From: a virus
Taxonomy: Duplodnaviria; Caudoviricetes
Strand: one strand, 5' to 3'
Virus record (IMG/VR): IMGVR_UViG_3300044694_000082
Location: 1 to 64,000 of that record
Length of the DNA stretch: 64,000 nt
The translations under genes and the position numbers were made by a program. The notes below the pieces were generated by a model that worked only from the letters and a program-made list of their open reading frames with translations, did not search any database and was not told the origin of the DNA. Shown piece after piece: positions 22,141 through 47,930 of the stretch; positions within the stretch are counted from its first letter, which is position 1; every line of letters begins with the position of its first letter.

Positions 22141-22167
22141 CAAGCCGCCGTCAAGGACGGCGGCTTG
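22141..22167. terminator. Stem-loop closing the parS-array transcription unit
   Basis: CAAGCCGCCGTC-aag-GACGGCGGCTTG. Confidence 0.6.
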
Positions 22168-22334
22168 GGCGTGTGACCTTGTCTTTTTGTCGATGTTTCA
22201 CGTGGAACATCGACGGCGTCAGTTACGCATCCACAGCCACGCCACGAAGCCGATGAGGCCCATGGCGGCGAGATCGAAGATCAGCTCGTAGGCGTTGTGG
22301 GGCACCGGCAGTCCGTCTGCCAGCATCTGGTGTA

Positions 22335-22852
22335 TCAAGGTGCTCCTCTTTCAGGTGGCGTTTCACGTGGAACATCGCGCGGGACATGCGCCTTGGGTAC
22401 CTCGATCACCGAGGGTCCCGTCATCAGCCGGTCATACACGCCGTATGCCTTGGTCCAGAGCAGCCCGAGCCACGAACCGGCCCACAACGTGAACCGGTTG
22501 CGGCACATCAGACGGTCCCAGAACGTGAACTCGAAGTCGTCCTCATCGTTCACGTCGACTCCTCGGTGATGGTGACCCGATGGGTTCGTTTCACGCCGTC
22601 ATAGGTATCGGTGACCAGCAGGTCGTTGGTGTCGTGGTCGATCACCACCTCGGGGACGGGCATCTCACTGACCAGCCCCAGGATGATGCGGTGGCGCAGC
22701 TCGATGAACGCGCTCTGCTTCATCAGCAGCCGCTTGTAAGTCGACCCCGATGTTTCACGTGGAACATCCGGCGGGACGACGAGCTTCGGCAGCACGATGG
22801 CAGCCTGCGGCTTGATGAGCTGCCGGAGCCAATGTTTCACGTGGAACATCAT
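22335..22852 (-). CDS. Two hypothetical genes (22335-22553, 22550-22852), each with an in-frame parS
   Basis: GTGA/ATGA overlaps; both contain DVPRET. Confidence 0.6.
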
Positions 22853-23646
22853 GCGCCGCGGGTGGCCAGCTCGCGGGCGGCCTCCTGGTAGGCGAGCGCC
22901 GCATTGTTGGACGGCTCGTACTCGATGAGCGTCTGGCCATAGCTGGGCGCCTCGGCCGCGCGGACGGACCGGGGGATCTTGGTCTTCAGCGTCTGCTCAG
23001 GGAAGTGTGCGCGGACCTCCTCCTCGACCTGACTGGCCAGCCGAGTCGCGGCGTTGTACATGGTGAGCAGCACGGTGGAGATGCGCAGCTCCGGGTTGTA
23101 GTACTCCTGGATACCGTTGATGGTCTTCGACAGCTGACCCACGCCTTCGAGCGCGTAGTACTCGCACTGGATCGGAACCAGGATCTCGCGGCCGACGACG
23201 AGCGCGTTGACCGTGAGCAGGCCCAGGCTGGGCGGGCAGTCGAGGAAGATGTAGTCGAAGCCCATCTTGCTGTCCTCGATGGCCCGCTTCAGCCGCTGCT
23301 CACGGGCGTGCATGTTGACCATCTCGACCTCCGCACCGGCGAGGTCGAGGGAGGCCGGGACGCAGTACAGGTTCTCCGAGAACTTCGTCTCCTGAACGAC
23401 GTCGTCGAGCAGCTTGCCGTCGGTGAGCACGTCGTAGATCGAGAGCATGTCCTCGTTGTGGTGGTCGATGCCCAGGGCCGTGGACGCGTTGCCCTGGGGG
23501 TCGAGGTCGACGACCAGGACCCTACTCCCGAGCTGCGCAAGGCAGGCAGCGAGGTTCACGGTTGAGGTGGTCTTGGCGACGCCGCCCTTCTGGTTGGCGA
23601 CGACGATGATCCGCGTCTCTTCGGGAAGCGGAAGGAAGCTGGTCAT
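22849..23646 (-). CDS. parA: ParA/Soj ATPase, chromosomal (Streptomyces-like) type
   Basis: ANQKGGVAKTT, VDLDPQGNASTALG, LDLAGAE, DCPPSLGLLTVNAL, PIQCEYYALEG, IPRSVRAAEAPSYG. ATG 23646 follows AAAAGGA; flanked by parS on both sides. Confidence 0.95.
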   Translation of the reverse strand: MTSFLPLPEETRIIVVANQKGGVAKTTSTVNLAACLAQLGSRVLVVDLDPQGNASTALGIDHHNEDMLSIYDVLTDGKLLDDVVQETKFSENLYCVPASLDLAGAEVEMVNMHAREQRLKRAIEDSKMGFDYIFLDCPPSLGLLTVNALVVGREILVPIQCEYYALEGVGQLSKTINGIQEYYNPELRISTVLLTMYNAATRLASQVEEEVRAHFPEQTLKTKIPRSVRAAEAPSYGQTLIEYEPSNNAALAYQEAARELATRGA

Positions 23647-23689
23647 GCTGGTGTCCTTTTGTCGATGTGGCGATGTTTCACGTGGAACA

Positions 23690-26179
23690 TCAAGCGGGGT
23701 AGAGCGCGGCCGTCTGCTTGTCGACCGGCTCAATGCGAATGCCCTCTGGCCAGTTGGGAGGGATCGGGACGCCGGGACTGCCGTGGGCGACGTCCCTGGC
23801 CAGGTTCTCACCGAACAGATATGGTCCGTCCGTCCAGACCAGGTGCCAACAGTCGTCCTGCTCAACGGCGACCGGCCTGCCGAAGCCCCGGTGCTCCTTG
23901 TAGCCGTGGAACATCAGCTTGACCTGCTCGACGCAGGACTCGGCCTGTTCGCGGGTGATGCGATTGGTCATGTCTCTCCTCTATGTTTCACGTGGAACAT
24001 CACTCTTCGGGTTCCTTCTCTTCGGCGGGATCCTGGCCGAGGTTCTCCAGCTCCTCCAGCGCGATGGCGATGTTGCCCGCCTGGTCAGCGGCCTCGTACC
24101 ACATGGTGTCGCGGTCCTCGGCGGTGTAGCTGCGATCCTCCATGCTGTCGTCGAGATCCTGAAGGCGGTCCCTGGCCGCCTCATAAAACTCGGACAGGTG
24201 CGTCAGGTTGTCCGTGGAAGTAGGGATGAGCCCGAGGACCACGTCGATAGCGTCCAGGAGCTTGCCCTGCACGCCTTCAGGAAGGACATCCTCGGCCAGC
24301 TCTGCCGTCCTGTCGCCGAAGGAGTCGAGCAGTCCACCCAGTTCTGCGCCCTTCTCCAGCCACGGCTTCAGCAGCTCGTTCGTTTCTTCGAGATCGTCCA
24401 GGAGCACCGAGAGCTTGGTCATGTTTGCACGGCTGCGGTGGGCTTCGGCCAGCTTCCTCAGCTGATCGATTGGATAGGTCATGGCTCCAGTCCTTGACGG
24501 TGATGTTTCACGTGGAACATCAGTTGTCTTCCAGCTCGACGGTCAGACTGTTCCCGGCCAACATGTGCAAGATCAGGACGTTGTCGCCCTGGATGCGCAC
24601 CTGTCCATTGCGCTCGTGGCAGACCGTGATGTGGCCCCACTTGTTGGCGAACTTCACCATGGAGTTCTTCGGCAGCGGGGTGTCACCCAGGCGGGACGGC
24701 TGCAGGATGCGAACATTGCTGTCCCCCTCGACCTCACCCTTGAGGATGGCGACAGCTTCCTCCAGCTCCTTAATGGTGCTGCGCATGCTGGCCAGGGATA
24801 CCTGCGCCCACTGCGGGAGCTTGCTCTCCCGCGGGTCGGCGGTCTCATGGTTGGTCATGGTGCTACTCCTCTCTATGTTTCACGTGGAACATCACTCGTC
24901 GGGCTCGCACTGGTGCATGTACACCAGCTCCCGTGCGGACTTCTCACCGAACGGTTCGCTGCCGTGCAGGTTGTAGGGGAATCCTGTCTCGAACCCGCAC
25001 GGCTTGTGCTTGAGATAGGCGAGGTGCGGGAAGTAGCCGCCGCTGCTGCGCGCTTCCCAGTCAGGAGGCAGATGCATCGTCGTCTCCCGATGTTTCACGT
25101 GGAACATCACCCTCGATCCGGGAGACCGAGACCGGCGTCCAGCTCTTGACGTAGCGCACCTTGGGTGCCGCTTCGATGGCGGCCCGATGAGCACTCACGT
25201 AGTCGACGGCGTCTACCTCGACCGATGTCGTGGCGTGTCCTTGGAGATACACCTTGTATTTCATGCGTCGTCCTCCCGCGATGTTTCACGTGGAACATCG
25301 ACCGTCTCGCTGGCAAGGATCCGCTTGAGCAGTTCACTCTTGTCGATCTGACCGACCTCGTGCGCCAGCCCCTGGGCATCCTTCTCCAGAAGCCGGGCCA
25401 TGGCATCGTCGCTGGGCGATGTTTCACGTGGAACATCCGTGACCACCGAACCGCCGTCCGGCACGATGCCGCCACTGAAGTTGCCGAAGGTCAACCTGTC
25501 GTTGGGCATCGCAGCCCGGAGTTTGTCCTCGACCTGGGCCCGCGCGTCGGACCAGTTCTCGGCCTCGACCGTGCGCTGAGCAGTACGGGCCGCACCGCCG
25601 TTGACGCGGTAGACGACGTCGACCTGGAAGAGCGATGTTTCACGTGGAACATCCGTCATCCCGCTGCCCACGAGGTGGTTCCAAAACTGTTCGGGGTTGT
25701 CGTGGTCGCCGCCGTACGACGCCCACGCCTCCCTGATCGTCTCCTGCAGCATGGCGACCTGCGAGAGCGGCATGTCGTCGGGCGTCTTGATGGAGAAGAG
25801 GCCGCGGTGGTCCGGCCAGAGTTGCTGGGTCATCGGTCCTCCTGTCGATGTTTCACGTGGAACGTCGGTGGCTGTCGAACTTCCGCTCGGCAGCCAGCTC
25901 CTGTTCGTACTTGGTCAGCGCACGGGCGTAGGAATCCAGGCGCTGGGCGGCCATGCGATTGGTGAGCTGACTGCGCCCCTTCCACACGCCGTCGGGGCGG
26001 CAGAAGGCGTCCTTCGGTGCGCCCTCCTCGTGGAACTCGGCGCAGGCCTTGATGATGTAGTCCGCCCGCATGCCGCCATCCACCAGGTAGGCAACGAGGT
26101 AGCGGTAGCCGAAGTTGTGCGCCGGGCTGGGCACGTGCTGATCGGGGGTTCCGTAGGGCGGGTTGAACTTGGCCATCAC
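23690..26179 (-). CDS. parS-separated small hypothetical genes: 23690-23971, 24000-24482, 24520-24858, 24892-25077, 25061-25264, 25261-25833, 25853-26179
   Basis: Each has its own RBS just after a parS site and ends at or in the next one. Confidence 0.75.
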
Positions 26180-26904
26180 TCCTCCGTCGATGTTTCACGT
26201 GGAACATAGAAGGTGGCCCGCACGGTCTGCAGCCAATCCTCGACCTTCTCGGTGTCGGGCTTCTCGGGCAGCACACACGGGGCGTTGTCGAAGACGTACT
26301 CATACTTGCCGAGGAGTTCCTTGGCATGGGCGATGTTCCCCATGGCGACCATGGAGCCGAACGACATCACGATGTCCGGGTGCTGGAGCCGGATCGACAG
26401 TCTGCCAGTCCTCCACAGTTCGAGGCCCTGGATCAGCAGCCGGTTCATGTGGCGAGCATGCTTGGCCGTCCGCTTGGCGAGGTCCGGCCCGAAGGTGCCG
26501 TCGGCTCGCGACTCCAGCTTCTTGAACTGCTGGGTGGCGTAGCCGAGGTAGGCGTTGCGGACGTAAGCCGCCGACAGGAATGCCTCCCTGATGCCGATCA
26601 GTGCTTCACCGAGCGGCGTGGTGGTCTCGTACTCGTCGAGCCAGAGCAGCTCCATGACGGTCGGATTGCACTTGAGGGCCAGCTGGCAGTACTTGCGGGC
26701 CTCATGCATGGTGATGTCGGGGTTGGTCTCGACGATCGACTCTTGTGGATTGGCCAACCCGAGGAAGGCTTCCGTGCGGGCGGCGAACACGCCGAGCCGG
26801 TCGATGTCGGAACCCGGGCGTGCGAGTCCGTACGCGGTGGATCCCACCACGCCGGACAGGAGGATCTTCACTGTGCTGTCTGATGTTTCACGTGGAACAT
26901 TCAC
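26176..26904 (-). CDS. YcgL-like nucleotidyltransferase (DNA pol beta superfamily)
   Basis: VVGSTAYGLARPGSDIDRLGVF (GS..DxD), KCNPTVMELLW, AYLGYA, KHARHMNRLL. Confidence 0.88.
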   Translation of the reverse strand: MNVPRETSDSTVKILLSGVVGSTAYGLARPGSDIDRLGVFAARTEAFLGLANPQESIVETNPDITMHEARKYCQLALKCNPTVMELLWLDEYETTTPLGEALIGIREAFLSAAYVRNAYLGYATQQFKKLESRADGTFGPDLAKRTAKHARHMNRLLIQGLELWRTGRLSIRLQHPDIVMSFGSMVAMGNIAHAKELLGKYEYVFDNAPCVLPEKPDTEKVEDWLQTVRATFYVPRETSTEE

Positions 26905-29024
26905 TGTCCGGCCTCGACGAGTTCGACCTCGGTGGCCCGCGGGAAGCAGACCTCAGTCTCGTTCCGGCAGGGGCTGCCGTCCATCCAGTCGAGCTGAAGC
27001 CGTCCGTCACCCGCCCAGGACCACTCACGGATAACGGCCTCACGGCCCTTGAAGGAGCCATCCTCCAAGATGCGGATGCGATCGCCGGGCACCAGGCCGC
27101 GGTGCATACGCAACTGCTCGAACTGGGACACGTCCGCGTTGTAGCTGGCTGCAGCCCTGGTGATTTCACTCTGGTGCGCCTCGACGGCCTGCGCTTCGAG
27201 CAGCGTGTCGTAGGCTTCGGCAGTCAGGCGGGCCGCCTGCACGAGGCGGTCCTTCTGGACGGCGCTCAGTGGAGTCTTCACTTCTCTCCTTGATCGGTGG
27301 ATGTTTCACGTGGAACATCGGGCAGGCCGCGCCGCAAGATGTCGAGGAATAGGGAGATGCCCTCCGTGCTGTACAGGTTGATGGTGGCGTTGAGGCCGTC
27401 CTCGTCGTTCCAGACGCGGGATCGCACGCTGACCTCGTTGTCCTTGTTCAGATCCCTGAGGCGGCGCAGCAGTTCCTCGGCATCCGGGGCGACCTTGTTC
27501 AGAGCCTCACTCATCCGCCGCTTTTCGGTTTTACGCTTCTCTGCCTTGGCCGCGTCTTCCTTGCGCTTGGCGTCGAGCAAATCCATGACCAACTCGCCGT
27601 AACGGTCACGCGTGGTGTACAGGTAGCGCACCCCGCTACGCCAGACGTTGTCATGGCCCTTCGAGCGGACATGCGTGACGTAGCCGTAGTTCTCCCTCGC
27701 GTATTCGTAGGGCCGGTGGTACTGGAAGTACACGGAGAACAGGGAGGTCTGGAACTCCTTGATAGGGAGGTGGACGTAGCCGTTCGCGCTGACCTCGACC
27801 CTGGCCAGACGCTCGTCTTCGAGGAGCTTTTCCATCCGGGACCGAACGGCATTCGACGTGCTCTTGAAGCTGCGGAAGCCCTGCGTGAGGAGATACTCCC
27901 ACTCGAAGACGGGATGGCGGTTGTCATCGGTGACCTTCTCGGCGATCAGTTCGTCGAGGAAGGCGTAGAGACGTTCCGGTGTGGGTGCAGGCATATCAGT
28001 TCTCCTTGGTTTCACGTGGAACATCGGCCGGATGGAAGAACTCGTCCCACATCCGGCGTTCCTCGTCGGTCATCTCGGTGTTGGGCCTCCGCTGCAGGAA
28101 CACCAGGTGGCCGCAGACTCCGCCCGTGACGCTGTAGGTGTAGCCCGGCACGCACTCCATGATCATGACGTCCTCGGTCTCATCGCAGTCGTCGGCCGGG
28201 CACTTCGGCCACGGCTTCCAGGCATCGATCGAATCACTCATCGCTCGGCTCCGATGTTTCACGTGGAACATTGAGCGCCTCGCGTGCGGCGGCCACGTTG
28301 TACGCATCGATGAACGGCTGCGCTTTGGACGTCATGTGCGTGTCAGTGAAGCGCTGAAAGGCGACGCCGTCCGTGCCAACCCAGTACAGGACACCGTCGT
28401 ACACGCCAGGCTCCTCGACGCCGTAAGCGATCTCGCGGTCAGCCATCGCCCGGCTCCAATGTTTCACGTGGAACATCACGGAGCCCCGCCTGCTGCTCAT
28501 CGAAGAGGCGCTGGGCAATGGCGCTCTCCCGCGTGAAGGTACGCCAGGCCGTCGTGTCGGCCGGTGTCTTGTACTCCCGCATGCGGGTCTCGAAGTATCT
28601 GAGCGCCAGCGCGATGTCCTCCTCGGACAGGCGCACCTTCCACCTGTTGCCCTTCTGGCGCTCGGCCTTGTGGAGGGCGGCGACCAGGGAGCAGATCTCG
28701 GGGCTGTATCGGTCGGGCTGGTCGGTGGATCGGAGCAGTCTCTGGAACTGCCCATCGGTCAGGAAAAGCTCTTCATCCATGGGTCTCCTTGGTGGGGATG
28801 TTTCACGTGGAACCCTCACTGCGTCCGCAGCGAGGGCAGGGGAGTTTTACGAGGTCGAGGCAGACAACGCAGTTGACCTGCGGATCGCCTTCGCCTTCCT
28901 CTACGTCGGTCAGGTCGGCGCCGCAAACGGCGGTGTCCGGGATGCAGCACCAGTAGTGCCCCAGCTCGTCACCGTCATCGGTGCTGGTTTCCTGGGGCGC
29001 AGGGGCGGGTGCCAAGGTGGTCAT
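26901..29024 (-). CDS. parS-separated hypothetical genes: 26901-27281, 27278-27994, 27996-28241, 28234-28446, 28439-28780, 28803-29024
   Basis: RBS and overlaps; several end in VPRET tails. Confidence 0.72.
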
Positions 29025-29126
29025 TGGCCGCTCCTTCCTTGTCAATGTTTCACGTGGAACATCGGGCTGGTCGTCGGTCGAGGGGAGCCCACCCCCGCGG
29101 GGATGGGCTCGGGTCACGACCGGCGG

Positions 29127-29456
29127 TCAGCTCCTCTTGCGCCGCACGATCGTGCCGGTGGTGTCGCCCTCGCGGATCATCGTGCGCAGCCGGGTCGCCG
29201 CGCGGAAGCGGATCCCGCGCACGGGTGCCACGTCGATCAGCTCGCCAGTCTGGAGGTTCCGGCCCTTCTTGGCGCCGCGCATGCTGGTCTCGAAGATGCC
29301 GAAGTTGGGGACGGTGAGCGCGCCTTCCGCAGCGAGCAGCTTGGCTAGCTCGTCGAAGGCGGCGGTCAGGATCTCCTGACTGGTGTTGACGTCGGTGTTG
29401 GTCCTGACAGCCACGGTCTTCGCGAGGTCGTTGAGGGTGGTCTTGTCCTGAGCCAT
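29127..29456 (-). CDS. hup: HU/IHF-family histone-like DNA-binding protein
   Basis: LTVPNFGIFETSMRGAKKGRNLQTGELIDVAPVRGIRFRAA. Confidence 0.9.
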   Translation of the reverse strand: MAQDKTTLNDLAKTVAVRTNTDVNTSQEILTAAFDELAKLLAAEGALTVPNFGIFETSMRGAKKGRNLQTGELIDVAPVRGIRFRAATRLRTMIREGDTTGTIVRRKRS

Positions 29457-29678
29457 GTGGCTTCCTTGTCTATGAGTGTCGATGTTTCACGTGGAACATT
29501 GGTGTAGCACCCGGCTACGACAATGCCGTCAGGGCGCCGAGGATGATCGCCGCAACTACCACAGCGGCGGCCACGATCAGCACTGCTATGTCGACGGCGA
29601 CGGACCGGGTGGTCTTGATCTTGGGTCGGAGATGCGGGTCGTAGGGCATCGTGGCCCTTCCTTGTCGGGTACTGCAGG

Positions 29679-30418
29679 TCAGTGCTTGCGTTTCCTTCGG
29701 GCACGGCGCTTGCGGGCCGTGACCTCGACGATGCGCCGGGTCCGGTGGCAGGTCTGCCTCCAGTCGATGATCCGCCGGAACTCGGCGTAGACGTCGTCGA
29801 CCATCGGCTGGGTGCGGCGGACGTACTCGCCGGGGGTCATCCAGTCGCCGGTCACGTGTCCGTCTTCTCCGGGTTTCGCAGGTGGGGCGGGAGCGGTTCG
29901 TAGTGGTGCCAGGCGCCCCACCATGCCTGGCGGAGGAACATCCAGAGCCGCTTCATGAGGAGGGTTCCGTCTGTTCTACGATCCGCAGCTCGCTCGGGCC
30001 GACGCGGAAATCGTCGAAGTTGGTGGGCCTGCCGACCCAGACCCACGCGAGGCGGTCGCCCTTGCGGCGGGGTAGGTAACGCACCTCTTGATCGAAGTGG
30101 ATCATGTAGATCTTCGCGCCCCGCTTCTGTGCCTGCAGCAACTCACGTGTCGTTGGCATGAGGGAGGCTCCTTTCTCGCTTGGTCTCACCCCAGGCAATG
30201 AACGCCCGGCCGATCTCGATGGCCTTGGCAGGGGTGAACACCTGTTCTTTCTTGCCAGGGTCCACGGTGATCGCGTGCCTGCCGAACGAGAGGATGGTCC
30301 CCGCATGACTGGTCGTGAACTCGACCTCGACCGTCTCGCCCTCTTCGATCAGCTCGACGATCTCATCGGCGGTGAGGCGTCCGTTGCGGTCGGGCATCAG
30401 AGGTTCTCCTTCCTTCAT
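29679..30418 (-). CDS. Small hypothetical genes (about 29679-29840, 29953-30159, 30143-30418)
   Basis: Short coupled ORFs; starts uncertain. Confidence 0.5.
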
Positions 30419-30729: not shown

Positions 30730-30751
30730 GCCGTCCGAGTTCGGACAACGT

Positions 30752-31189: not shown

Positions 31190-31261
31190 GAGACCTTCCT
31201 TGTCTGGCGCGCTAACCGTGTTAGGCTGGCGCCGGTGTCACTTTCTTTGTCGAGTAATGCG

Positions 31262-31295
31262 AAAGCCCCCGGGGTCCATGACCTCGGGGGCTTTT
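31262..31295. terminator. Bidirectional intrinsic terminator
   Basis: AAAGCCCCCGGGGTC-cat-GACCTCGGGGGCTTTT. Confidence 0.8.
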
Positions 31296-31312
31296 GTCTG
31301 CGCGGGCGGGTG

Positions 31313-31582: not shown

Positions 31583-31624
31583 GTCACCCTTCCTTGTCGG
31601 CGGTGCGATGTTTCACGTGGAACG

Positions 31625-32392
31625 TCAGGGCCAGAGGGTGGGCAGCCGAGGGATGACGGTGGACAGCCAGCCGTCCGGCTCGGCGACGAAGTGCGGTGCG
31701 TCGTAGACCTGCCAGTTAGCGAGGGCCGCCTCGTCGAGGTTGGACAGGCCGGTCGGGTCCTTCGGCCACTGGCCCGGGTACGCGACGACCCGGCCGCGCT
31801 TGAGTCCGGGGTCGAGGTCGTTCCAGTTGATGCCGTGGTTGTCGAAGAGCATCTCCTGGATCTGGTCGGTGGTCTTCCTGTGGAGCTGGGCCTGGGTGAA
31901 GTAGTGCTGGCCGAGCATCTGGATGGAGTTGCGGACGGCGTCACGCTGGCGCCAGACGAAGTAGTTCGCCACTTCCACTGGGTCGGTCATGGACCACACC
32001 CGGCAGTCGAACTGCGGTTGCAGGTTGGGGTCCATGCGCAGCCGGTCCAGCACCACCGAGGCGTAGGCCGCGGAGATCGAGGTGATCTTGTCGATCCGGC
32101 CGCCGAACCACAGCTCGGAGCTGAGGGTGTCGAAGTCGGTGAGGAGCAGAGAGATCTCGTCGGACTGGGTGTAGGCGAACCGTGCACCCTGGATCTCGCG
32201 GCACAGGGCCTCGGCGACGACGTCCATCTGCCTGACGAAGCCTCGATCGAAGGGCTTCTCAGTGTCCTTGAGGTAGGTGTGGAAGGCCCGGCCGTCCAGA
32301 CGCAGCAGCGTGTAGGAACGGCGGGGAACCTTGCGCTCGTAGGTCCGCTCATAGACCTTCATCCGGTTGCCGAGCGGGGTGTTGTCGCTCAT
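31625..32392 (-). CDS. tRNA(His) guanylyltransferase Thg1-like protein (3'-5' nucleotidyltransferase)
   Basis: RMKVYE, LRLDGRAFHTY, YTQSDEISL, FDCRV, YFVWRQRDAVRNS, GINWN. Confidence 0.93.
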   Translation of the reverse strand: MSDNTPLGNRMKVYERTYERKVPRRSYTLLRLDGRAFHTYLKDTEKPFDRGFVRQMDVVAEALCREIQGARFAYTQSDEISLLLTDFDTLSSELWFGGRIDKITSISAAYASVVLDRLRMDPNLQPQFDCRVWSMTDPVEVANYFVWRQRDAVRNSIQMLGQHYFTQAQLHRKTTDQIQEMLFDNHGINWNDLDPGLKRGRVVAYPGQWPKDPTGLSNLDEAALANWQVYDAPHFVAEPDGWLSTVIPRLPTLWP

Positions 32393-34220
32393 GGTCTCCT
32401 CTCTGTGTTTCACGTGGAACATCGCGGCCGATGTGTCGGCGGACAGCTTCGACGGCGGCCACCGCTTCTTCGTGCATCCACTTCTCGTAGGCCTCGCGCT
32501 CCATCACGACGGCGGGCTTGCCGCAGGACTTGACGTTGCGCCCGGCGGCGTGCTTCCACGTGCCCTTGGCGCCCCAGAGGTGGACGGCGCAGCCGCACCG
32601 CTGGCAGACGTAGTGACTCTGGCTGGTGGCCATGGTGTCTCCTTCACTCGTTGTCGACGATGCGATGCCAGCGCTCGATCAGCCGGTCGTTGTGTGGACC
32701 CGTGTCGGGATGCGTAGCCGACAGACGGCCCTCGATCTTGCCCATGGACAGGATCACGTCGAGCTTGCCACGGATCTCCGTCTCGCCGATGCGATCGATG
32801 GTGTGCTCAGGAATCAGCACGAGGATCGCGTCGTACAGTTCGGCGGTCCTCAGGACTCGTTGCACCTGGTTGCTGTAGTCCCCGTTCATGGCTTCCTCTC
32901 GTAGCCATCGCCACGGAGATCGGCCTTGGCGATCTTCTCGCTGGCGATGTCGATGGCGGGCATCAGGGTGTCGGCGCAGAGGTCGCCGTAGAAGTGCGGG
33001 TTGACGTCGCGTCCCAGGTACAGGCACCAGCCCGCGTCCAGGATCTTCACCAGCCGGTAGGTGAGGCCGAAGATCTCGGTCTCCCATACGCCGGAGCGGA
33101 CGGACATGGGCACGTACCCGCGCCGGAAGGTCCAGCCGAATCCGTTGTCGGCTTCGATGTACCGCTCTCCCATGTGCGTCTTGCGCTGGGCCATCACTTC
33201 TCCTTGGCCGTTGTTTCACGTGGAACATCGAGCGTGAGGGCGAGGGCGACGGCCTCCCTCTTGCTGGGCCGTGTCCTCCACGGTTCATTCGGGCTGTTGT
33301 AGGGGCGGGCGCCCCAGCGCCGGTAGTAGCTATTGTTGGGTAGATGCTTCACGGTAGCGGTGTACGTGGTGCTGCCGGTGGGCTTGATGTGGTAGGTGGC
33401 CTCTTCGGTTTCGTCGGGGTCGATCGTGTAGTCATCTCTCTTCGGCAACCGGTACATGGCAGCCTTCCTTGTCGGGTGTTTCACGTGGAACATCGGGTGG
33501 ATCATCTCGGTCAAGGGGGATGCCCCTGCCGCACCGCCACAGGGGCAGGGGCATCCGGCTTGAGGTGACGATCAGGACGGCGGGTCCTCCTCGTCGCGGC
33601 CCATCAGCCACGAGTGGAACAGCAGCCCGAGCAGCATCATGACCGCGGCGAACATCCACGCGTGATCGAGGAGACCGAGGATGACGTCCTCGGCCGTGGG
33701 CTTGACGGTGAAGGTGAACTCGCCGGACATGTCACGTCTGGCCCGGCTTGTTGAAGACCCACACGTCGTCGCTGACGTTGACGTCGCCGACGACCCAGAT
33801 CTTGGAGCCGTCCATGACGGACTGCTCGACCTGCTTCTTGCCGTGCTCGTTCAGCCAGTGCCAGCCGACCGGTCCGCAGTTCTCGTCGAGGTACTCCTCC
33901 AGCGGTTCAAGGGAGCTGGGGTAGTAGATCTCGAACTTCGCGGCCATGTCCTTGACCTGGCGGGGCGTGAGGAACGTGCCGCCGTGGAACTGCTGGGCGG
34001 CCTTCAGCGTGGCCAGGACGCCATCCTCGGCGTCGGCCCTCGACCAGGTCTCGGCCTGCCGGTAGACGTGGCGCAGGGCGTTGGCTGCGGCCCTGGCCTC
34101 CTGGTTCTTCTTGTAGACCGCGTCGTCGATGTCCTCCTCCTCCCACGGCGAGCCGCTCAGGGCGCGAAAGAGGACCAGCCAGACGGCGGGGACGGAGAAG
34201 CGGATGTCGTCGGTGCTCAT
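32349..34220 (-). CDS. Hypothetical genes: 32349-32633, 32644-32889, 32886-33197, 33194-33457, 33732-34220
   Basis: RBS/overlap pattern; parS at several junctions. Confidence 0.65.
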
Positions 34221-34264
34221 GAAGCTACCTTCCTTGTCAGCGGGGATTGTTTCACGTGGAACGC

Positions 34265-34714: not shown

Positions 34715-34723
34715 GATGTCCTT

Positions 34724-38506: not shown

Positions 38507-38764
38507 TCAGGTCGTACTGACAGTGGGTGCTGCTTCGTCCTCGGGCAGCAGCTCCCTGACGTGCTTCCACGTCTCCCGCTGGATGACGGCTCGGCAGGTG
38601 CTGTACTCGATGCCGTACTCAAGGCCGAGATTGAGGATGCTGATCCTCTCGGTCTTGTACCGAAATCGAATCTCCCGCACCTTCTCCTCGGTCAGTTTCG
38701 CCCGGCCGTGTTTCTCGCCCTGGTTGTACGACCGGCGCTTGCGCTTCTCCACCAGTGAGTCCAT
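38507..38764 (-). CDS. Stand-alone HTH of the type found at the C-terminus of phage HNH endonucleases
   Basis: NQGEKHGRAKLTEEKVREIR...LGLEYGIEYSTCRAVIQRETWKHV. Confidence 0.7.
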   Translation of the reverse strand: MDSLVEKRKRRSYNQGEKHGRAKLTEEKVREIRFRYKTERISILNLGLEYGIEYSTCRAVIQRETWKHVRELLPEDEAAPTVSTT

Positions 38765-39192
38765 GACTCTTCCTTGTCTGTCGTGCGTGGAAGCAGTCTG
38801 CTCACTCCATCGTCATGGCGTCCAGCCACTGGGCGGCTGGCATCCCGTCGAGGTACCAGTCGCCATCGCCGGTACCGGTGAAGTCCTCCAGTTCCAGGTC
38901 GAGTTCGTGCTTGGCAGCCTCGGCGATGAACTGCTCGCGGGTGGTGAGGTGGGCGTAGGGGCGCTTCGGACAGCCCTGCATCCGCGCGAAGGCCCCGTAG
39001 GTGTTGGTCGCTCCACAGTCGGTGCATCTCCAGAGGGTGAGGGCCATGCCCCGCTGCCCCTCCTTCATGCCGGTGTCCTCGCAGCGGTGGCCGCAAATGT
39101 TGGTAGTCATGGTGTCCTTTCCTCGTGACTCCGGAGGGGCCACCGTGCGAGACGGTGACCCGTGCTGGCGCCACGATGTTTCACGTGGAACA

Positions 39193-39633
39193 TCAGCGGC
39201 AGGCGACGCGCTTCCACGTCAGCTGCGTGCCACCGGGTCGGCCGTCGGCGTCGACCAGGGAGATGACCCACTGGCCGCCCGCGGTGCCGCACTGCTGGCC
39301 GATGGCGTCCACGCTGACCGGCACCGCGGTGACGTTGAGCTGGTAGCTCTTCGCCTCGGCGACCAGGGCGTCATGCATCTGCCGCTGGGTGTATCCCGAG
39401 TGCGTGATCTGGTGGACGAGGGTCTTGCCGCTGGGCTCGGTCCAGGCCCCCTCGCGGTGGCCGTCGAAGGTGCGGCCGTAGGAGTGCTGGAGCTGGACCT
39501 TACGGCACAGGGTGCGGTCGGCGGAGGCGACGCGGTTGCAGTCGTTGTTGCTGCTGGCGCCGACGGCGACCGGAACAGCCACGCCGATGAGCAGAGCTGC
39601 GGCGGCGATGGCGGTCAGGGGACGGTTGATCAC
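39193..39633 (-). CDS. Putative secreted protein with four Cys
   Basis: Signal peptide VINRPLTAIAAAALLIGVAVPVAVGA; flanked by parS on both sides. Confidence 0.7.
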   Translation of the reverse strand: MINRPLTAIAAAALLIGVAVPVAVGASSNNDCNRVASADRTLCRKVQLQHSYGRTFDGHREGAWTEPSGKTLVHQITHSGYTQRQMHDALVAEAKSYQLNVTAVPVSVDAIGQQCGTAGGQWVISLVDADGRPGGTQLTWKRVACR

Positions 39634-39672
39634 AGGTAATTCTCCTTGTCGTTGTTTCACGTGGAACATGGG

Positions 39673-42600
39673 TTACAGCTCGGTCCACTTGCCGTTGATC
39701 CAGTACCAGATCTCGCTGGCACCGGCGTTCGGCTTGCCGAAGTCGTCGAGCGGGGCGAAGTCCTTGACGCCCTGCTCGTCCTCGGGGCGGGTGATGATGC
39801 GGCCGGTGTAGTACAGCTCGCCGTCATCGTCCCGCATCTGGAACGGGCGCCCCTCACCGGCCTTGAGCCGGGCCTCGATGGCGGGGCTGATGTTGTGCGG
39901 GCCCGTCACCCCCTTGGCGTTGGCGTTGCTGCCCTCGGGGGCGCTGGTGTCTGGTGCGTGGTCGGTGGTGATGATCCAGCCGTACGACGCGTGCTTCATC
40001 ATGGGTGCTCCTACTGGGGTGGGTACAGGCCGAGGACCTGGCCGTTGCCAGGCTCGGCGAAAGCGATCTCGCGGGGCACGACGCCGTCATGGCTGGCGTC
40101 GATGGCCCAGTTGAGTGGCCCGTCATGCCAGACCACGGCCCACGGCATGACCGGCTCGATCGAGTCGTAGGTCTTCTCCCAGTCCTCGACCAGGGTGGGC
40201 GTGCCGAACGAGTCGCCGAGCAGCTTGTAGTGCCGGGTGATGTAGCCGAAGGCGGCTGCCGCCTGGCCGGGGGTCAACTTGCTCATGTGGTGCGCCTCCG
40301 TGCGAGAAGTTCGGTGTAGTGAGGACAGTCGTCGTTGTGGTAGTCCTGCCAGTACGGACACTCACACCGTGGCAGGGGCTCATCAGTTACTGCATCGGAG
40401 CCGAGACGGATGATGCCGTCCGCATCGGCCTTGGGGTAGCGATCGTTGAGATCGATGCCACGCAGGCCAGCCATCAGGCGGGCGTACGCCTCCTCGTCGA
40501 CACAGGAGCCGTCACAGAAGTCCGGCTCATCCTCGGTGCCTGGGCCGTGACCCGGGCACTCGGGCTTGTCATCGGGCGACTGGTGCTTGTCATTGTTCGG
40601 GTTGGCGCCGCAGAACGTCTCGCCGGTGATCAGGTCGCGGCCGTCCTCGTCCAGTGGATCCGAGCAGTGCACGCACAGCGGGGTGTCGTAGTCCTGGCTC
40701 ACCAGGGCCTCTCCCTCTGCTCGCCGCAGGGGCAGGTCTGGATCACGGGCGGCCTGGGCAACTCTCCTCCTGACGGTGGGCTTTCGAAAACATGGACGTG
40801 CCCGGCGCCCGTCTGGTGCGCCGGGCACCGGTGCTCCTGGGTCGCCGTGTCGTACGCCCAGCCCGCTTGCCGCGCCGACGTGAACGCGGCCACGTGTGTG
40901 CGGTACGTGGTGATCACACCGAGGCACTTGAGCGGGCGGCCGGGATCGAGCCAGCCGCCGCCCACGCAGCGGACCATGTACTGGGCGTGGATGCTCACCG
41001 CATGCTCTCCTCGATCGCTTCGGCTTCGGCGTCCTCGGCGGCGAGGCACCGCTCGCACTGGTTCTCGCCCTCGTCGCAGTTCTCCTGGTCGGCGCCGTTG
41101 ACACAGCGTTCAACCTGGCTCTCGGGGATGAACTTGGCGTCGTCCATGGAGTACCAGGTCTCGGGACCGCCGGGCCGGAGCCAGTGGACCCGCAGCCGTG
41201 TACGCCCGTTCTTCTCCTCGACGGCGATGACGTAGCCCTGCTGGCCGCCCTTGCCCTGGATGTAGACGCGCGGCGCCGTCGGCCGTTCGTAGCGCTCGAA
41301 CCAATCGGCGAACTTGGCCGCAGGCCAGGTCTCGTAACGATAGTCCTTCGGCATGTCCTCACCACGGTCGAACTCAATCAGCAGCTCATCCTTGTTGCCG
41401 CGCGTGCGTCGCAGGACCGTGACGAACTCACCCGCACCGCCCGTGTTCGGCTTGCGCATGCGCCAGGTCGATCCGACGGCGAACTGACCGGCGGGGATGG
41501 GCTTGGGCGGGCACTCGGGGCCGTCGGGGTGGACCTCGACGCGGTTGTCAGCGAAGGCGTACGAGTCGTAGTCGGCGTAGCTCCCGTGCGGGTACTCGCG
41601 CCGCCACATGTACTTCGAACGACCAGCGGTGTACCCGCTGATCATGCCAGGCTCAGGGTTTCGGTAGACCATCTTGCGACGGTCGTCGTCCCATTCGACA
41701 TCGGAGACCAGCACCCGCGTACCCACGGGCAGCAGCTTGTGCTTCGGCTCCGGGGGCGGGTCGGCGTAGTCGCAGTCCTCGGTGTGGCGCTCCTTGCACT
41801 GGGGGCGACGGTTCTCCTTGGACCTGCACTCCTTGAGGGGCGGCAACGGGATGACCTCACGCCACGCCTCGACCTCGTAGGGTGGGTAGTCGCTGTGGTT
41901 CTCTGCCAGCATCACGAGGGCTGCGATGTGGGCCCGCTGTGCCTCGACCTGCGCGGAGAGGAGGGCAGCGATCCGCTCCAGCATGTCGTCAATCGCGAAC
42001 GCGTCGTTGATCTCTGCGTTGATCGCCTTGAAGTACTCGGGGCCGGTCTTGTTGTCGGTCATGATCAGTCCTTCCGTCCGTCGAGGAGCTTGCCGAACAT
42101 CTTGGAGGCGGCGGTCAGGTCGGGCTGAGGCTCGGCCTTGACGATGGCGACGACGGCGGCGCCGTTGTCCCGCTGCTGGCGGGTGAGGCAGGCCTCGGCG
42201 CCTTTGTAGGTACCGGACCACTTCACACCGACGGCGATCCGGCCGTCCGACCAGCGCACGACGGCGGCGTAGTTGTAGGTGTTGGCGGAGGTGCGTTCGG
42301 CGTGGTGGAGCTGGCCGTCCTCGTCGCGGTAGACGGCCACGTACTTGGTCTTCTTGGTGGGCATGTCAGGGCTCCTCGGTGTGGGCGGTGTTGGCGGGGA
42401 GGCACTGCGGGGTGGTGCGGTGCCAGGTGTAGCAGCCGTCGCACAGGCAGTCGTCCTCACCGGCGAACATGGCGTCTTCCGGCGTGACCAGACGGCCACA
42501 GCACGGGCACGAGTTCGGCGGGGTGTCGGCGGGGTCGATGCGGAAAGACCAGCCGGACGGCTCATGCAGCTTCGCAACGGCGGTCCCCAGTTGTGCGAGG

Positions 42601-45600
42601 TCATTACCGAACCGGCGGGCGGCCATGACCGGGACGTCCATGCGGATCAGGATGTCTCCGGCTGCGTCGCCCGCGTGCTGGATCTCGGTGACCTCTTCGC
42701 GCAGGACCACGGCCTTGCCGTAGGCGGCCGGGGCGATGGGCGGGTGGATGACGGACAGGACGTAGCTCATCGCAGCTCCTCGATGTCGTCGGGGTGTTGG
42801 TACTGCTGGATCTCCATGGCCTTCCTGTAGTTGCGAGCCGCGGCCAGCGAGAAGCCAGCCGACGCGATGGACATGACCAGGGACAGGAGAGAGATGATCA
42901 GGGCGACGGTGTCGTTCATCGGGTGGCCTCCAGCTCGGCGAGGCGGGCGGTGATGAGCCGCTTCCAGGCGTCGGTGAGGGGGGCGAATACCTCCGTACGC
43001 TCGGCGTCGTTCAGTCGGTGCGCGAAGACGCCGATCTCCTTGGTTCCGAGGGTGAATCCGTGGGCCATCCTGTCGTCGTCCACGTCCAGGCCGAGTTGGT
43101 CCATGGCGCCCATGTAGGCGCCGTCACCGTCCGAGTGGCAGACGATCTGAGCGGCGACGCAGAACTGGGTGTCGGAAACGTCGAGGGCGCGGAGGTCGAC
43201 GTCCAGCTCCCAGCCGGGGTAGCGGGCGTCGAGGATGCGGGCGCCCTTCAGGACGCGGGCGTCGAGTTCGGTGTCGGTGGGGAACATGGTGTCTTCCTTG
43301 TCGTAGTTGGTCCCGTAAGCCGAAGGGGCCGGACACAGTGTGCCCAGCCTGTTCGGTCGGCGGGTCAGTCTTTGGTGGGCCAGAGGCAGGCCACGATCAC
43401 CACGATGGCGGTGATCACGGCGATGGCTGCGACGCCCAGGAGTACGGCACCGATCCCGAGACCGATGCCGCATCCTTCTGGGTCGTACTTCCGCATGTCC
43501 GAGGGGCACCAGAAGTTCCAGTACCAGTCGGGGATGCTCACGTGATCTCCGCGATCGTGACCCGATAGCGGCGGGTGTCGTTGCTGCCGTACGGGTCAGC
43601 CGTGACCACATCGATGGCCAGCGGCTCACCCGGGACCGGCGGGACCAGGTCGAAGTGCTTGACCAGCCGGGTCTCCAGGTCACCGTTGAGCAGACCGGTC
43701 ATGGCCGTGTAGATCGCGTAGCGCAGCTCGGCGTCGTTCATCCGGGGTACTCCCCGAGCCTCGTGTCCCAGGCGTCGCCGGGCAGACGGGCCAGCCACTT
43801 GGCGATGACCATCTGGGCGAACTCGTGCGGGATGCCTTCGGCATCGGTGCCCTCGGTCTTCTCCGTCCAGAACTCCAGCAGGGTTCCGGCCTCTTGAAGG
43901 AGGCGTTCGGCGACCTGTCGGCGCATCTGGGCGGCACTGACGCGTGCCGAGGGGGTGGGCGTGTCCATGGTGTCCTTTCGGTCGGCGGGGCTTACGCGCC
44001 CGTGAACTTCAGGTCGATGCTGGCGTCGACCTCACCGTTGCCGAAGACCCCGCCCCGGGCGTTCCCGGCGATGTAGGTCTTGGCGTCGTTCTTGATGTTC
44101 TCGCGGCCTTCGACGCCGAAGGCGGTCGTCCACTGGGACGGGTTGTGCAGGGTGACGGTCAGCTGGACGGTGAAGCTCATCGGGCGGTTGGGATCGCGGG
44201 CCATCGGGGTGGCTCCTTTCAGTCGGCGGCGAGTGCGGCCTTGGCGGTGCGGTGGGTGACCAGCTCGATGACCCACGCCTCGTAGAGGTTGGCGTAGTTG
44301 CCGTCGTGGTCGTCGTTTTCCTCGGCGAGGGTGACCGCGAAACCGTACTCGGCGGAGACGTCGTCGTTCGGGGGAATACCGAGCCGTTGCTGGCCCCGGC
44401 TGTACGAGCCACCACCGATGGCCTGTGCCGACGCGCAACGGGTGGTGCTGTACAGGTCGAGGGTGTCGAGGTCGATCCGGTCGGTGGCGCCCTGCTCGTA
44501 CTCCTCGATCTTGGTGATGCCCTTGCGGACGCGGGGGCGGAACTCTTCGATGGTCGTCGGCATGGTGAACCTTCCTTGTCGGGTGGTGCAGGTGTCAGGC
44601 GGTCTTGGCGGGGCAGGTGTCGGGGCATTCGGTGTGATCGCCGCTGTCATGCAGCCTGATCGCCTTCTCGAACCAGGCCAGCTGGCGCTGTTGTTCGAGC
44701 ATGCGCGGACCGGGACGCCCGATCAGGACCACGGCGCAGTCACGGTCGAATCGCGGTTCATACAGGCGCCCGTCGGCGGCAGGAGTGGCCCGAGTCTTGG
44801 AGACCACATCAACCCCGATCACCGGGTAGCCGGTGGGGCCGTTGACGCCGTCGGTGCGGATCTCGACATAACCGATCCTGCGCGGCAGCTTGATCTTGAT
44901 GACCGCCTCGTCGTCGTGCATGAGCACCGTGCGGTGCTCGCTGGGGTTGAGTTCGGTCATGGGGTGCTCTCCTTGTCGAGGTGGTCGGCAAGCGCACGCA
45001 GGGCGTACTGAATGCCGGGACGGGTGCCCAGGCGGATGATCTCGGAGGGTGAGCCGTCCTTGTTCCGGACGGCGAAGCCGTTGGCGGGCAGACCCATCGC
45101 GCCACCGATCATCATGCCGCTGTCGCGAAGCTCGATCAGGTGGTCTTCAACGGCCAGGTGTACGGCCTGCATGAGGTCGGGGTCGTCGGCGATCTGACGC
45201 AGGAGGGCGGCGGCGTTGTCGGGCAGCTTGGGCGTGGTCATCAGATGCCCTCCCTGATCGTGTGGTCGGTGAGGGTGGCGTCGAGGCGGGCGATGAACTG
45301 ACCCGGCACCGGAAAGACGGTGGCGACCAGATCACCGATCACGGTTCCTTCGGGCTTGCTGTAGAAGCGGGTGATGCCGTCATCGCTGAGGACCATGTAG
45401 TCGGCGGCGATGTAGGCGACCGGGTCGTCCGCGTAGCGCTCGATGCGGAAGACGTGGGCGGGCTCGTGGTTGTCGCTCACAGCTTGGGCTCCTTCGTGGC
45501 GAGGCGTTCGCCGTTGAACTTCTTGTACGGCTGGTCGTCGCCGTCGCAGTGGATGTAGTACCAGCCGTCGAAGTACTGGCCGCCGGGTGCCATGATCCCT

Positions 45601-47516
45601 TCGTCCATGAACTGTGTCGGTTCAACGACGCCCCACCTGCGGTCGTAGTCCAGCACCCGCAGGCTGGGGGTGATGAGGGCGCGGTCGGAGGTATGGTGGG
45701 CCTCCAGGATGCGGAAGTCGTAGCCGGAGGGGTGGCCCCAGACCGTGCCGACGGGGCGGCGGCCGAGGGCGTCACCGAACAGGCGGGCGTTCCTCGACCC
45801 AGCCACACCGGACCCGATCAGGGAGCCTTTGGCGGCCAGGGCGGCGTGTTCGACGCTGGAGTAGGCGGTGTCTCCGTAGGCGGTGATCTTGCCCAGCGGG
45901 CTGCGACGGATAAGCAGGAGCCCTGGCATGATCACGCCTCCTCGGTGCGGACGGGGACGAACCAGGCCGGGGAGGGCTGCCCGGCGTTCGGGAACCCCGG
46001 GTCGTAGACGGCGGCGTCCTCGACGCGGATCACGCCGTTGGATTCCAGCGCGACGACGGAACCGCGAGCTACGGCCTTCTCGATTTCGTAGGCGACCCCG
46101 GCGGCGTTGTCTTGGCAGATGCGCCGGGACCAGCCGAGGCCGTAGCCGCCCGCCCACTTGGTGTACCAGACGCCGGGGACGGGGGTGGGGATGGATGCGG
46201 TGGTCATGGTGTCGACCTTCCTTGTCGGTGTAGCGTGGTGGCGTCTACGTATCAAAGCCCGGCACGGCGGCAACCGTGCCGGGTTTCGTGTTTCACGTGG
46301 AACATCGGGCCTACTCGGGGGCCGACTCCCGCTGCTGCTCCAGCTGGTAGGCAGCCTCGCGCTCGATGGCCTCGCGGTCCGGCTCCGGCTCGCTGCGGCA
46401 GTCGTGCTCGTTCATGAGCGTGATCAGCGTGCCGATGTTGTCGTCGGGCTCGATGCGGGTGATGACCGTGCCGCAGTGCTCGTGTACCAGGTCGTGATCG
46501 GTCTGCATGTCGTCGTCGCTACGGCGGACGACGAAGCCGTACGGGTCGTTGATCTCCATCAGCTCTCCTCCCTGGTGCCAGTCAGGAAGACGACGCCCGG
46601 ATGGTGTGGCTGGCCGTCCTCGACGGTGTACGAGTAGCCGTCGGCGGCCGGGTCCTGGTAGGTGATGTCAGACATCACGTCGACACGTACGCGTGGGGCT
46701 CCGTCCTCGCGACGGGATTCGGTGTCGATCTCCACGACGCCGATGCCGTCGGGGAGGATGACGCGGAGGCTGCCGCGTCTCATGCGGTACTGGCGATAGT
46801 CGTTGGTCATCAGGCGACCTCGGCCTTGGCGTACTCGTCGTACGCGTCCATGAGCAGGTGGCGGAGCTGGGCGTGCGCGTCGCGGGCGGCGTTGTAGGCG
46901 GCCTCGGTCTCGTCGTAGTCCAGCTTGCCGCTGACCTCGAACCTTTCGGTGATCCACTCCCGCAGGGTGGGCATCTCCTCATACCGGGCGGCGTTCATGA
47001 GGAGTTCGCCGAGGACGCCGGACAACTCAGGGTTCACGTGACGGCCCCCGTTGCTCCGGCGGGACTCGGCCACGGCTCCACCGATGCCCCGGAAGTAGGC
47101 GGTGCGGCGGGTGCTGCCGTCCGTCACCCACTTCTGCGGCTCCTCGGTGGAGCGGATCAAGACCAGGTCCCACACCTCGTACTCGCTGTACGGGCCGGTC
47201 GAGACTTCGTGCGTCCAGAACCAGCGGGCGCGGATGCCGTCGCGGTTGATCAGGTCGGTAAGGGTGGTCATGGTGGTGTCCTTTCGGTGTCGGGCGGCGG
47301 AGTCAGCGGTCCAGCTTCTTGGAGCGCACGCGGTGCCGTGCATCCGGGGATGCGATGGTGTACTCCCTGCACAACCAGTACGCGTAGTCGCGGCCGGTCA
47401 GGGAGTCGTCCGGGCCACCCGTGTCGGTGGGTTCGACCTCGTCCAGCTCCTCCCACTCCGAGCCGGGGCCGGTGGTGTACTTGCCTTCGATGACCCAACC
47501 GTTGACGGTGCTCATG
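39673..47516 (-). CDS. Run of hypothetical genes including 39673-40002, 40011-40286, 40995-42062, 42065-42364, 42366-42770, 42916-43287, 43738-43968, 44219-44563, 44595-44960, 44957-45241, 45241-45480, 45477-45929, 46311-46559, 46559-46810, 46810-47271
   Basis: Coupled ORFs with RBSs; several mutually similar pairs (see findings). Confidence 0.65.
46255..46286. terminator. Intrinsic terminator-like hairpin next to a parS site
   Basis: AAAGCCCGGCACGG-cggcaa-CCGTGCCGGGTTT. Confidence 0.7.
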
Positions 47517-47548
47517 ATGGTGTCCTCTCGATGTTTCACGTGGAACAT

Positions 47549-47896
47549 TCAGCGGGCGGGCGGTGTGTAATCGGGGTCGCGGCGGATCTTGTTGTTGACG
47601 ATCCGGGAGACCGTCCCCTTGTCCAGTCCGAACTCCTCCGCGATGGCGGCCAGCGAGACACGGCCGGTCGCGTACTGCGCGCGGATGACCCGGGCCTCCT
47701 TCAGCAGTTGAGCACGCGTGGGTGCGGGCGGGAGATAGTCCGGGTCCGGCCAGGTCTGGCCACGGATGATCGCCGAGATGGTGGCGTGGTGGACGCCGTA
47801 CGTCTCGGCGAGCTGCGGCATGGTCGTGCGGCCTGCCGCGTACAGGGCGCGGATGGTGCGCACCTGCACCCAGGTCAGTACAGGGGCGCCGGGCAT
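47549..47896 (-). CDS. Tandem double-HTH DNA-binding protein
   Basis: Two repeats: TMPQLAETYGVHHATISAIIRG and SLAAIAEEFGLDKGTVSRIVNN. Flanked by parS on both sides. Confidence 0.8.
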   Translation of the reverse strand: MPGAPVLTWVQVRTIRALYAAGRTTMPQLAETYGVHHATISAIIRGQTWPDPDYLPPAPTRAQLLKEARVIRAQYATGRVSLAAIAEEFGLDKGTVSRIVNNKIRRDPDYTPPAR

Positions 47897-47930
47897 GGGG
47901 TCTCCTTGTCGGATGTTTCACGTGGAACGG

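Follow-up and report, generated by a model that had tools for sequence, protein, structure and literature searches.

The virus record IMGVR_UViG_3300044694_000082 (G000; 104,344 bp), whose first 64 kb form the window analyzed here, carries 32 identical and co-oriented copies of a chromosomal-type parS site together with a gene for a Soj-type ParA ATPase that lies inside the densest part of the array. No ParB gene was found in searches of the whole record. As far as can be judged from comparisons of sequences, the phage most likely borrows the ParB of its host to position, keep, or quieten its own DNA. In the form of this reading that we favor, to which we assign a probability of roughly 60%, host ParB loads on genuine parS sites and forms a hybrid with the ParA and parS of the phage that positions or segregates the phage DNA.

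The parS array, ParA, and the search for ParB

G000 is a tailed phage. The record, which originates from a soil or rhizosphere metagenome, is rated complete by CheckV, and gene calling from codon bias and ribosome-binding sites gave 211 genes. The sequencing runs listed as containing it are soil and rhizosphere DNA runs, which may be the source sample, with no RNA run among them. All of the genes from ~0.8 to 70 kb are on the minus strand. Genes for a family A DNA polymerase, an SF1 helicase, and a D5-type primase-helicase make up a replication module at the left end. Beyond 75 kb, the plus strand carries the structural genes, among which are the terminase and portal genes, a tape-measure-sized open reading frame (ORF), and the gene for an endolysin that has a peptidoglycan-binding domain. 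The preliminary description of the window had recognized the element as phage-like and had allowed that it might be an oriC-proximal piece of a chromosome. A chromosomal origin is ruled out, since this is a complete tailed-phage genome with terminase, portal, DNA polymerase, primase-helicase, and endolysin genes. The nearest cultured terminases, those of Arthrobacter phages, are ~42% identical to the terminase of G000, and a megablast search with the array found no match among cultured phages.

A scan of the window for GTTTCACGTGGAAC found 32 exact copies between positions 22195 and 47928, all on the plus strand, with an expectation of 0.00 in shuffled sequence; 22 of them fall within 7.3 kb (22195 to 29497). 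These numbers agree with the preliminary description, which had counted 32 invariant copies, 22 of them in 7.3 kb, and had seen none elsewhere in the window, and the remainder of the 104,344-bp record (including the other 56 kb) likewise holds no further copies. A search of the window that allowed up to two mismatches revealed no degenerate copies, the extra matches being the same 32 sites read in reverse. The single orientation and the shared asymmetric pair that had been described are true of every site, each having T at position 4 and G at position 11 on the plus strand. The sequence of the site on the coding (minus) strand is (T)GTTCCACGTGAAAC(A), with a flank consensus of (c)(g/a)AT-GTTCCACGTGAAAC-ATCG. 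The chromosomal parS consensus, TGTTNCACGTGAAACA (PMC7022226), is matched in its 14-bp core by all 32 sites and in all 16 bases by 25 of them, in which the full 16-mer on the coding strand is TGTTCCACGTGAAACA.

The equation of this motif with chromosomal parS, also made at the outset, is borne out by the sites of bacteria themselves. In 80 bacterial loci found via ParA, 124 parS sites were present, comprising 58 of the TT form, 37 of the CC form, and 29 that are asymmetric in either orientation, which indicates that the T/C position is one of natural variation; all four variants are found beside chromosomal parAB operons. The flanks of the bacterial sites share the preference of the phage sites in a weaker form (T at -1, A at -2, and a purine at -3), and the phage sites look like optimized parS. 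Judged both by their match to the consensus and by the occurrence of the same variants beside chromosomal parAB operons, the phage sites are parS of the chromosomal type, a reading that is well supported as far as sequence and comparison go. The agreement in natural variants and flank preference favors host ParB as the protein that recognizes them.

Read on the coding (minus) strand, to which the positions of all individual sites refer here, site 1 (22195 to 22208) is the last in the direction of transcription. It is followed just downstream by a terminator-like hairpin with a perfect 12-bp stem and a 3-nt loop (22141 to 22167, minus strand), which may mark the end of the array transcription unit. 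Site 2 (22360 to 22373) lies 21 nt upstream of the start of an ORF of 39 amino acids (aa), and site 3 (22752 to 22765) lies within the ORF downstream of parA, where it is read as VPRET. Sites 4 (22834 to 22847) and 5 (23675 to 23688) are found 1 nt past the parA stop codon and 28 nt upstream of the parA start codon, respectively. The dense array continues with 17 further sites (23985 to 29497), about one per small gene, which start at 23985, 24505, 24877, 25092, 25283, 25421, 25637, 25850, 26192, 26885, 27303, 28009, 28256, 28461, 28800, 29047, and 29484. Beyond it are five sites at 31610 to 34262 (starts at 31610, 32407, 33213, 33478, and 34249), two at 39178 to 39667 (starts at 39178 and 39654), and three at 46290 to 47928 (starts at 46290, 47533, and 47915), the last two of which flank a gene for a tandem helix-turn-helix (HTH) protein.

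The dense cluster surrounds parA (22849 to 23646, minus strand) and adjoins the replication module as well as a 500-bp noncoding region with promoter-like elements (21280 to 21780). The product of parA is a full-length Soj-type ATPase of 265 aa (Pfam AAA_31, E = 1.3e-60) whose Walker A (KGGVAKT), DLDPQ, DCPP, and DNA-binding Arg (IPRSVR) motifs are intact, and it matches the ParA/Soj structures 8ray and 1wcv in the PDB with E values of 1e-67 and 1e-60. It is 50 to 60% identical to chromosomal ParAs of Actinomycetota. In a quick tree that included bacterial ParAs taken among the matches listed, the ParAs of G000 and of two related phages (G001 and G006, described below) form one group (support of 97) that is nested in a well-supported group of ParAs from the class Actinomycetes, and the three phage proteins thus appear to branch with the chromosomal ParAs of that class. 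Transport to hyphal tips or spores would presuppose a Streptomyces-like host, and the tree points only to the class Actinomycetes.

At seven chromosomal ParA loci that were checked, a ParB with the usual N-terminal GLGRGL peptide is encoded directly downstream in all seven. A search for parB in the rest of the replicon had been proposed at the outset, and none was found in the whole replicon: profiles for ParB_N and HTH_ParB, which do match in control genomes, found no ParB in the six frames of G000, and tblastn searches with seven chromosomal ParBs gave nothing better than an E value of 0.25. The small genes adjoining parA had no match to a Pfam or PHROG family. In three related phages (G001, G005, and G006), the ParB_N profile and tblastn with the same seven ParBs gave nothing convincing; a weak ParB_N match in G001 (E = 0.018) was rejected as a ParB, as it falls in a vWA-domain protein. 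Compared with a complete type I ParABS locus, G000 has the ParA, and no co-encoded ParB was found.

Site placement, related phages, and cassette borders

The placement of the sites is nonrandom. Although noncoding DNA makes up only 6.7% of the region, 17 of the 32 sites are wholly noncoding (binomial P = 2.6e-12), and the usual layout is that of a stop codon followed by parS, a ribosome-binding site, and a start codon. In most cases (25/32), a minus-strand start codon follows 13 to 28 nt after the end of the site, and a GGAGG-type ribosome-binding site lies within this gap; ~13 of the sites begin 1 to 2 nt past the stop codon of the preceding gene. In about nine other cases, an upstream gene reads through the site, which lies within or overlaps the last few dozen bases of that gene, and four sites are truly intra-ORF and are read in differing frames. 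The sites would be located between stop codon and ribosome-binding site because this is nearly the sole noncoding DNA available there. Searches for host sigma-70 promoters or terminators at the sites found none above the level of shuffled sequence on the coding strand, and there were no matches to Rfam families or tRNAs. A search for a T7-type RNA polymerase also gave no match, but the control search was likewise silent; no unexplained ORF in G000 has the size of such a single-subunit polymerase.

A search with the terminase identified a clade of ~100- to 117-kb phages in which such arrays recur. G001 (116.7 kb) and G006 (111.6 kb) both have a terminase 84% identical to that of G000. The former carries 23 exact co-oriented sites, one perfect palindrome, and two one-mismatch variants, along with a ParA that is 71% identical to that of G000, and the latter carries 20 exact co-oriented sites and a ParA that is 67% identical. 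G005 (102.4 kb; terminase 76% identical) encodes no ParA; its 15 sites, each of which lies upstream of a gene, comprise 10 canonical, 3 reversed, and 2 perfectly palindromic ones. More distant relatives of 42 to 60 kb have neither parS sites nor ParA. The genes shared within the clade are ~70 to 77% identical in DNA, and the genes of the arrays are mostly different and differ in order. Since the 14-mer is identical despite this divergence, its core must be under strong purifying selection. That G005 tolerates reversed and palindromic copies favors host ParB, which would bind as a symmetric dimer. Furthermore, no DNA-binding protein was found to be common to all four array phages (the tandem-HTH protein of G000 is missing from G001 and G005), which favors host ParB over a phage protein; the proteins that all four do have in common gave no recognized family.

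In comparisons of G000 with G006 or G001, several blocks of similarity end 0 to 3 nt from the edge of a site, and the order of the blocks is shuffled. The parS repeats coincide with the borders of shuffled gene cassettes, and from these alignments it appears that they probably serve as the crossover points for the cassettes.

The same site is also arrayed on a phage of another kind, IMGVR_UViG_3300038443_000757 (G002; loci L345 and L346), which is SPO1/CP-51-like, with a genome of 169 kb, a GC content of 36%, and a CP-51/SPO1-like helicase. Its 12 parS sites (168793 to 169219 and 1 to 18168) include all four variants in both orientations and lie in gaps between small genes, and neither ParA nor ParB was found in it. 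G002 shares almost no proteins with G000, the only matches being generic HU and HTH fragments; it also has pectate-lyase-like ORFs, which are possible tail spikes. The array of G002 is not general to the SPO1-like family, as parS sites are absent from the cultured SPO1-like phages CP-51, SPO1L1, and Goe9. The presence of the same 16-mer on phages of two host phyla argues for a conserved host factor rather than a private phage regulator. In addition, the parS 18-mer ATGTTTCACGTGGAACAT is present in at least 119 viral stretches (IMG/VR loci L009 to L127). Among the matches listed, 14 hold at least three parS-family sites, and no ParB gene was present in the fetched flanks of these stretches. Host-type parS on viral contigs may thus be common.

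A proposed hybrid partition system and its alternatives

Binding by host ParB, its partnership with phage ParA, and the purpose that we infer for them would fit together as follows. Host ParB would load on the 32 sites as CTP-dependent sliding clamps. The sites would come from the phage, as would, in three of the four clade members, a Soj-type ParA that binds the nucleoid, whereas ParB would not. Phage ParA, host ParB, and phage parS would then make up the working unit, adjoining the replication module in an arrangement that resembles that of chromosomal parS near oriC. The task of this unit would be to position or segregate the genomes of the phage on the nucleoid of its host while the phage is in a carrier, plasmid-prophage, or delayed-lysis state. 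Taken together, the parA-centered cluster, an Xer-sized recombinase, and a Cro/CI-type HTH gene (both described below) suggest a maintained, nonlytic state. Each small early gene would travel with its own copy of parS, the repeats would act as crossover points that shuffle gene cassettes between phages, and dense loading of ParB over the early operon would probably also lower its expression. The provision of one site per gene, along with the arrays in phages that have no ParA, suggests that ParB loading affects expression or that ParB titration matters.

Several points weigh against this hybrid as a full account. G005 keeps its array without ParA, which makes ParA dispensable for the function of the sites; few sites would suffice for partition, and one per gene looks more like regulation; and most small G000 proteins have no recognizable family, so a novel phage-encoded binder is conceivable. 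A further point concerns orientation. The asymmetric variant is present in one orientation at 75 sites in G000, G001, and G006, with none reversed and one symmetric, and because neutral T/C flips are expected at such divergence, the asymmetry itself appears to be selected. A fixed asymmetry is not explained by a symmetric ParB dimer and calls for some further strand-specific constraint or for a partner that is itself asymmetric; that the asymmetric form is selected in three of the phages is a real argument for the former. As for a partner, ParA or a 99-aa basic protein (21780 to 22079) is a possible candidate in the three ParA-bearing phages. The initial reading of the co-oriented sites is thus confirmed as to co-orientation, but it leaves both the strictness of that orientation and the position near start codons unexplained.

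Avoidance of RNA hairpins would explain the asymmetry only in part. In predicted folds of the 22-mer on the mRNA strand, the chosen orientation forms the weakest hairpin (-5.8 kcal/mol), with a C-A mismatch in the stem, compared with -9.8 kcal/mol for the reversed form, -10.3 kcal/mol for TT, and -12.7 kcal/mol for CC, and the three reversed copies in G005 sit farther from the start codon (40 to 55 nt). However, the palindromic flanks (GAT...ATC) add base pairs to the stem, and the orientations in G002 are mixed and mostly opposite, neither of which fits this idea. Maintenance of co-orientation by recombination was ruled out, as the two orientations differ at 2 of 14 bases, between which recombination would hardly discriminate.

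The regularity of the array could also reflect a phage-encoded, sequence-specific regulator that binds the motif, in which case the sites would be stoperator- or KorB-like operators acting gene by gene and their likeness to parS would be mimicry or coincidence. The fixed distance of 25 of the 32 sites from a start codon would be expected of such operators, and the 75 asymmetric sites in one orientation relative to transcription, across three diverged phages, would suit an asymmetric or monomeric binder, of which the Cluster A repressor is an example (PMC9283540). G000 does encode a site-flanked tandem-HTH protein, a one-HTH paralog of it, and a Cro/CI-type HTH protein, along with many small proteins of no known family. 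Nevertheless, we consider such a regulator unlikely. None of the DNA-binding proteins is present in all four array phages, the tandem-HTH protein being one of those that are not; the same 16-mer is arrayed in the unrelated, low-GC G002; G005 tolerates reversed and symmetric copies; the flank preferences equal those of chromosomal parS; and an exact match to the 16-bp host consensus would be very unlikely to arise by coincidence. The reversed copies in G005 likewise disfavor a directional promoter signal. More doubtful again is an element that acts at the RNA level, as a weak hairpin that sets the processing, stability, or translation of cistrons, or a pure recombination border like the PeSL cassettes of T4-type phages; this we regard as very unlikely. 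The predicted fold of the 22-mer on the mRNA strand, the orientation fixed relative to transcription, and the shuffled similarity blocks that end within 0 to 3 nt of several site edges are consistent with an element of this type, but the 14 core bases, including the loop, are invariant across phages that are ~70 to 77% identical, with no compensatory changes, which argues for sequence-specific recognition rather than structure. Reversed and symmetric copies in G005 and G002 would alter the RNA fold greatly, and no Rfam family was matched. Recombination alone would leave the identity with parS and the adjoining ParA unexplained, and the shuffling is more plausibly a result of the repeats.

Host ParB might instead be the target of a takeover, in which 32 sites on each replicating copy titrate ParB off oriC and so derail segregation, division, or sporulation or divert SMC loading, with phage ParA adding mislocalization. 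Actinobacterial chromosomes have up to roughly two dozen parS sites near oriC, and the sites per phage genome at least equal that number. The sites also lie in the early region, and the persistence of arrays in the ParA-less G005 and G002 means that partition by phage ParA cannot be their sole use. A sponge of this kind, however, needs no placement at gene starts, no single orientation, and no dedicated ParA, and it offers no clear gain to a phage that kills its host; the Xer-sized recombinase and the ParA in three phages point to maintenance and not to sabotage. We therefore think it quite improbable that titration is what the array is for. A tentative option, which we hold possible without expecting it, joins regulation to partition: host ParB clamps, loaded at a parS ahead of nearly every early gene, would act as a roadblock and silencer of the early operon and would also form, with phage ParA, a hybrid segregation complex that takes the silenced genome through division of the host, with the repeats driving the modular exchange of early genes. 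Such a system would combine stoperator-type immunity with a partition system, the host segregation protein serving as the "repressor."

Other genes of the phage and comparison with known systems

Several further genes lie in or beside the array. The 99-aa basic protein (21780 to 22079, minus strand) belongs to no known family, with no Pfam or PHROG match and no useful Atlas lead, and is present only in the three phages that have ParA. An HU-like DNA-binding protein (29127 to 29456, minus strand; Pfam Bac_DNA_binding, E = 3e-17) is encoded within the array, and an HU fragment is also encoded by G002, a phage unrelated to G000. The tandem-HTH protein (47549 to 47896, minus strand), of 115 aa in two ~55-aa repeats, is flanked by parS sites and is a possible candidate for a phage-encoded binder, albeit one that is not conserved clade-wide. 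An 85-aa paralog with one HTH is encoded at 38507 to 38764 (minus strand), and both genes are conserved only in G006. Outside the window, a tyrosine recombinase of 302 aa, which is Xer/Cre-sized, is encoded at genome positions 72211 to 73119 (L128:8211-9119, minus strand) and is confined to the three phages with a ParA. A Cro/CI-type HTH gene is located near the start of the minus-strand gene run (genome positions 69413 to 69718). The recombinase and the HTH gene together hint at a temperate or plasmid-prophage lifestyle.

Also inside the array are genes for an RlaP-type nucleotidyltransferase of the RNA repair pathway (26176 to 26871) and a Thg1-like tRNA-His guanylyltransferase (31625 to 32392), both on the minus strand, which suggests that the early genes include RNA or tRNA repair functions. 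The ~500 bp of noncoding DNA at 21280 to 21780, upstream of the primase-helicase gene and adjoining the parS cluster, contain several TTGAC-like boxes, a sigma-70-like promoter (21685 to 21656), and short inverted repeats and may be an origin or promoter region. Amid the replication genes, a UDP-glucose/GDP-mannose dehydrogenase and a family 2 glycosyltransferase (9190 to 12065, minus strand) form what looks like a surface-glycan cassette, which is present in G006 and not in G001. Genes for ThyX, a dCMP deaminase, a vWA-domain protein whose type is common in Actinomycetota, and a TerD-domain protein were also observed (window positions 63069 to 64000 and genome positions 64318 to 65451 and 102907 to 103563).

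Among known systems, Bacillus phage phi29 is the closest parallel, and its use in the preliminary description as a precedent for host-type parS on a phage was sound, since it has five host parS sites that are used with Spo0J (PMC2731898). Like G000, it carries parS of the host consensus without a ParB of its own; entrapment in spores is a feature of phi29. Whereas phi29 lacks a ParA and carries five sites on its 19 kb, G000 has 32 invariant sites on 104 kb and a presumed high-GC host, and it differs further in the single orientation, the position adjacent to start codons, and the orphan Soj-type ParA. With the chromosomal ParABS (Soj-Spo0J) system, G000 shares the 16-bp site, the flank preferences, many sites by the replication module, and a ParA that is 50 to 60% identical. 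Chromosomal systems, however, have parB beside parA and mixed site variants, and G000 has no parB beside parA and has a uniform variant and orientation. When plasmids and phages have partition systems, the ParB and parS are normally their own and separate from those of the chromosome, as in SCP1 (PMC13245405).

The array of G000 also resembles the stoperators of Cluster A mycobacteriophages in having dozens of short co-oriented sites in short intergenic gaps, which in those phages are found genome-wide. Stoperators are bound by the monomeric repressor of the Cluster A phage itself (PMC9283540). In contrast, the site in G000 is a near-palindrome with the same sequence as that of the host, and the phage yielded no repressor to match it. 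Stoperators are asymmetric 13-mers; G000 shares with them the many co-oriented intergenic sites and not the asymmetric site with a co-conserved repressor of its own. KorB of the IncP plasmid RK2 is a ParB-family clamp that acts at dispersed palindromic sites (the OB operators) in replicon-wide regulation (PMC7022226). It is encoded by the plasmid along with its own site, whereas in G000 the ParB would have to be that of the host. Two further systems have a conserved motif before many small early genes and repeats at mosaic borders, as G000 does. The start-associated sequences of Cluster K mycobacteriophages are a motif upstream of small early genes that includes the ribosome-binding site, and the PeSL cassettes of T4-type phages consist of a promoter and a stem-loop. 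The G000 motif differs from both in lying 13 to 28 nt upstream of the start codon, in having no sigma-70-type promoter, and in being equal to parS.

To our knowledge, phi29 is the only tested case of a phage that uses host parS. In our view, the system of G000 is a novel and extreme form of the strategy used by phi29, to which an orphan ParA, a start-associated cassette layout, and a selected asymmetry have been added. If the favored reading is true, this clade of phages, in which 15 to 32 optimized host parS sites are combined with an orphan ParA of the chromosomal type and ParB is lacking, would represent a natural split partition system and would show how a mobile element plugs into the ParB, and possibly the SMC, machinery of its host. 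Recognition of the repeats as parS would also account in a simple way for the start-associated repeats of large phages and for the manner in which these repeats promote the shuffling of gene cassettes.

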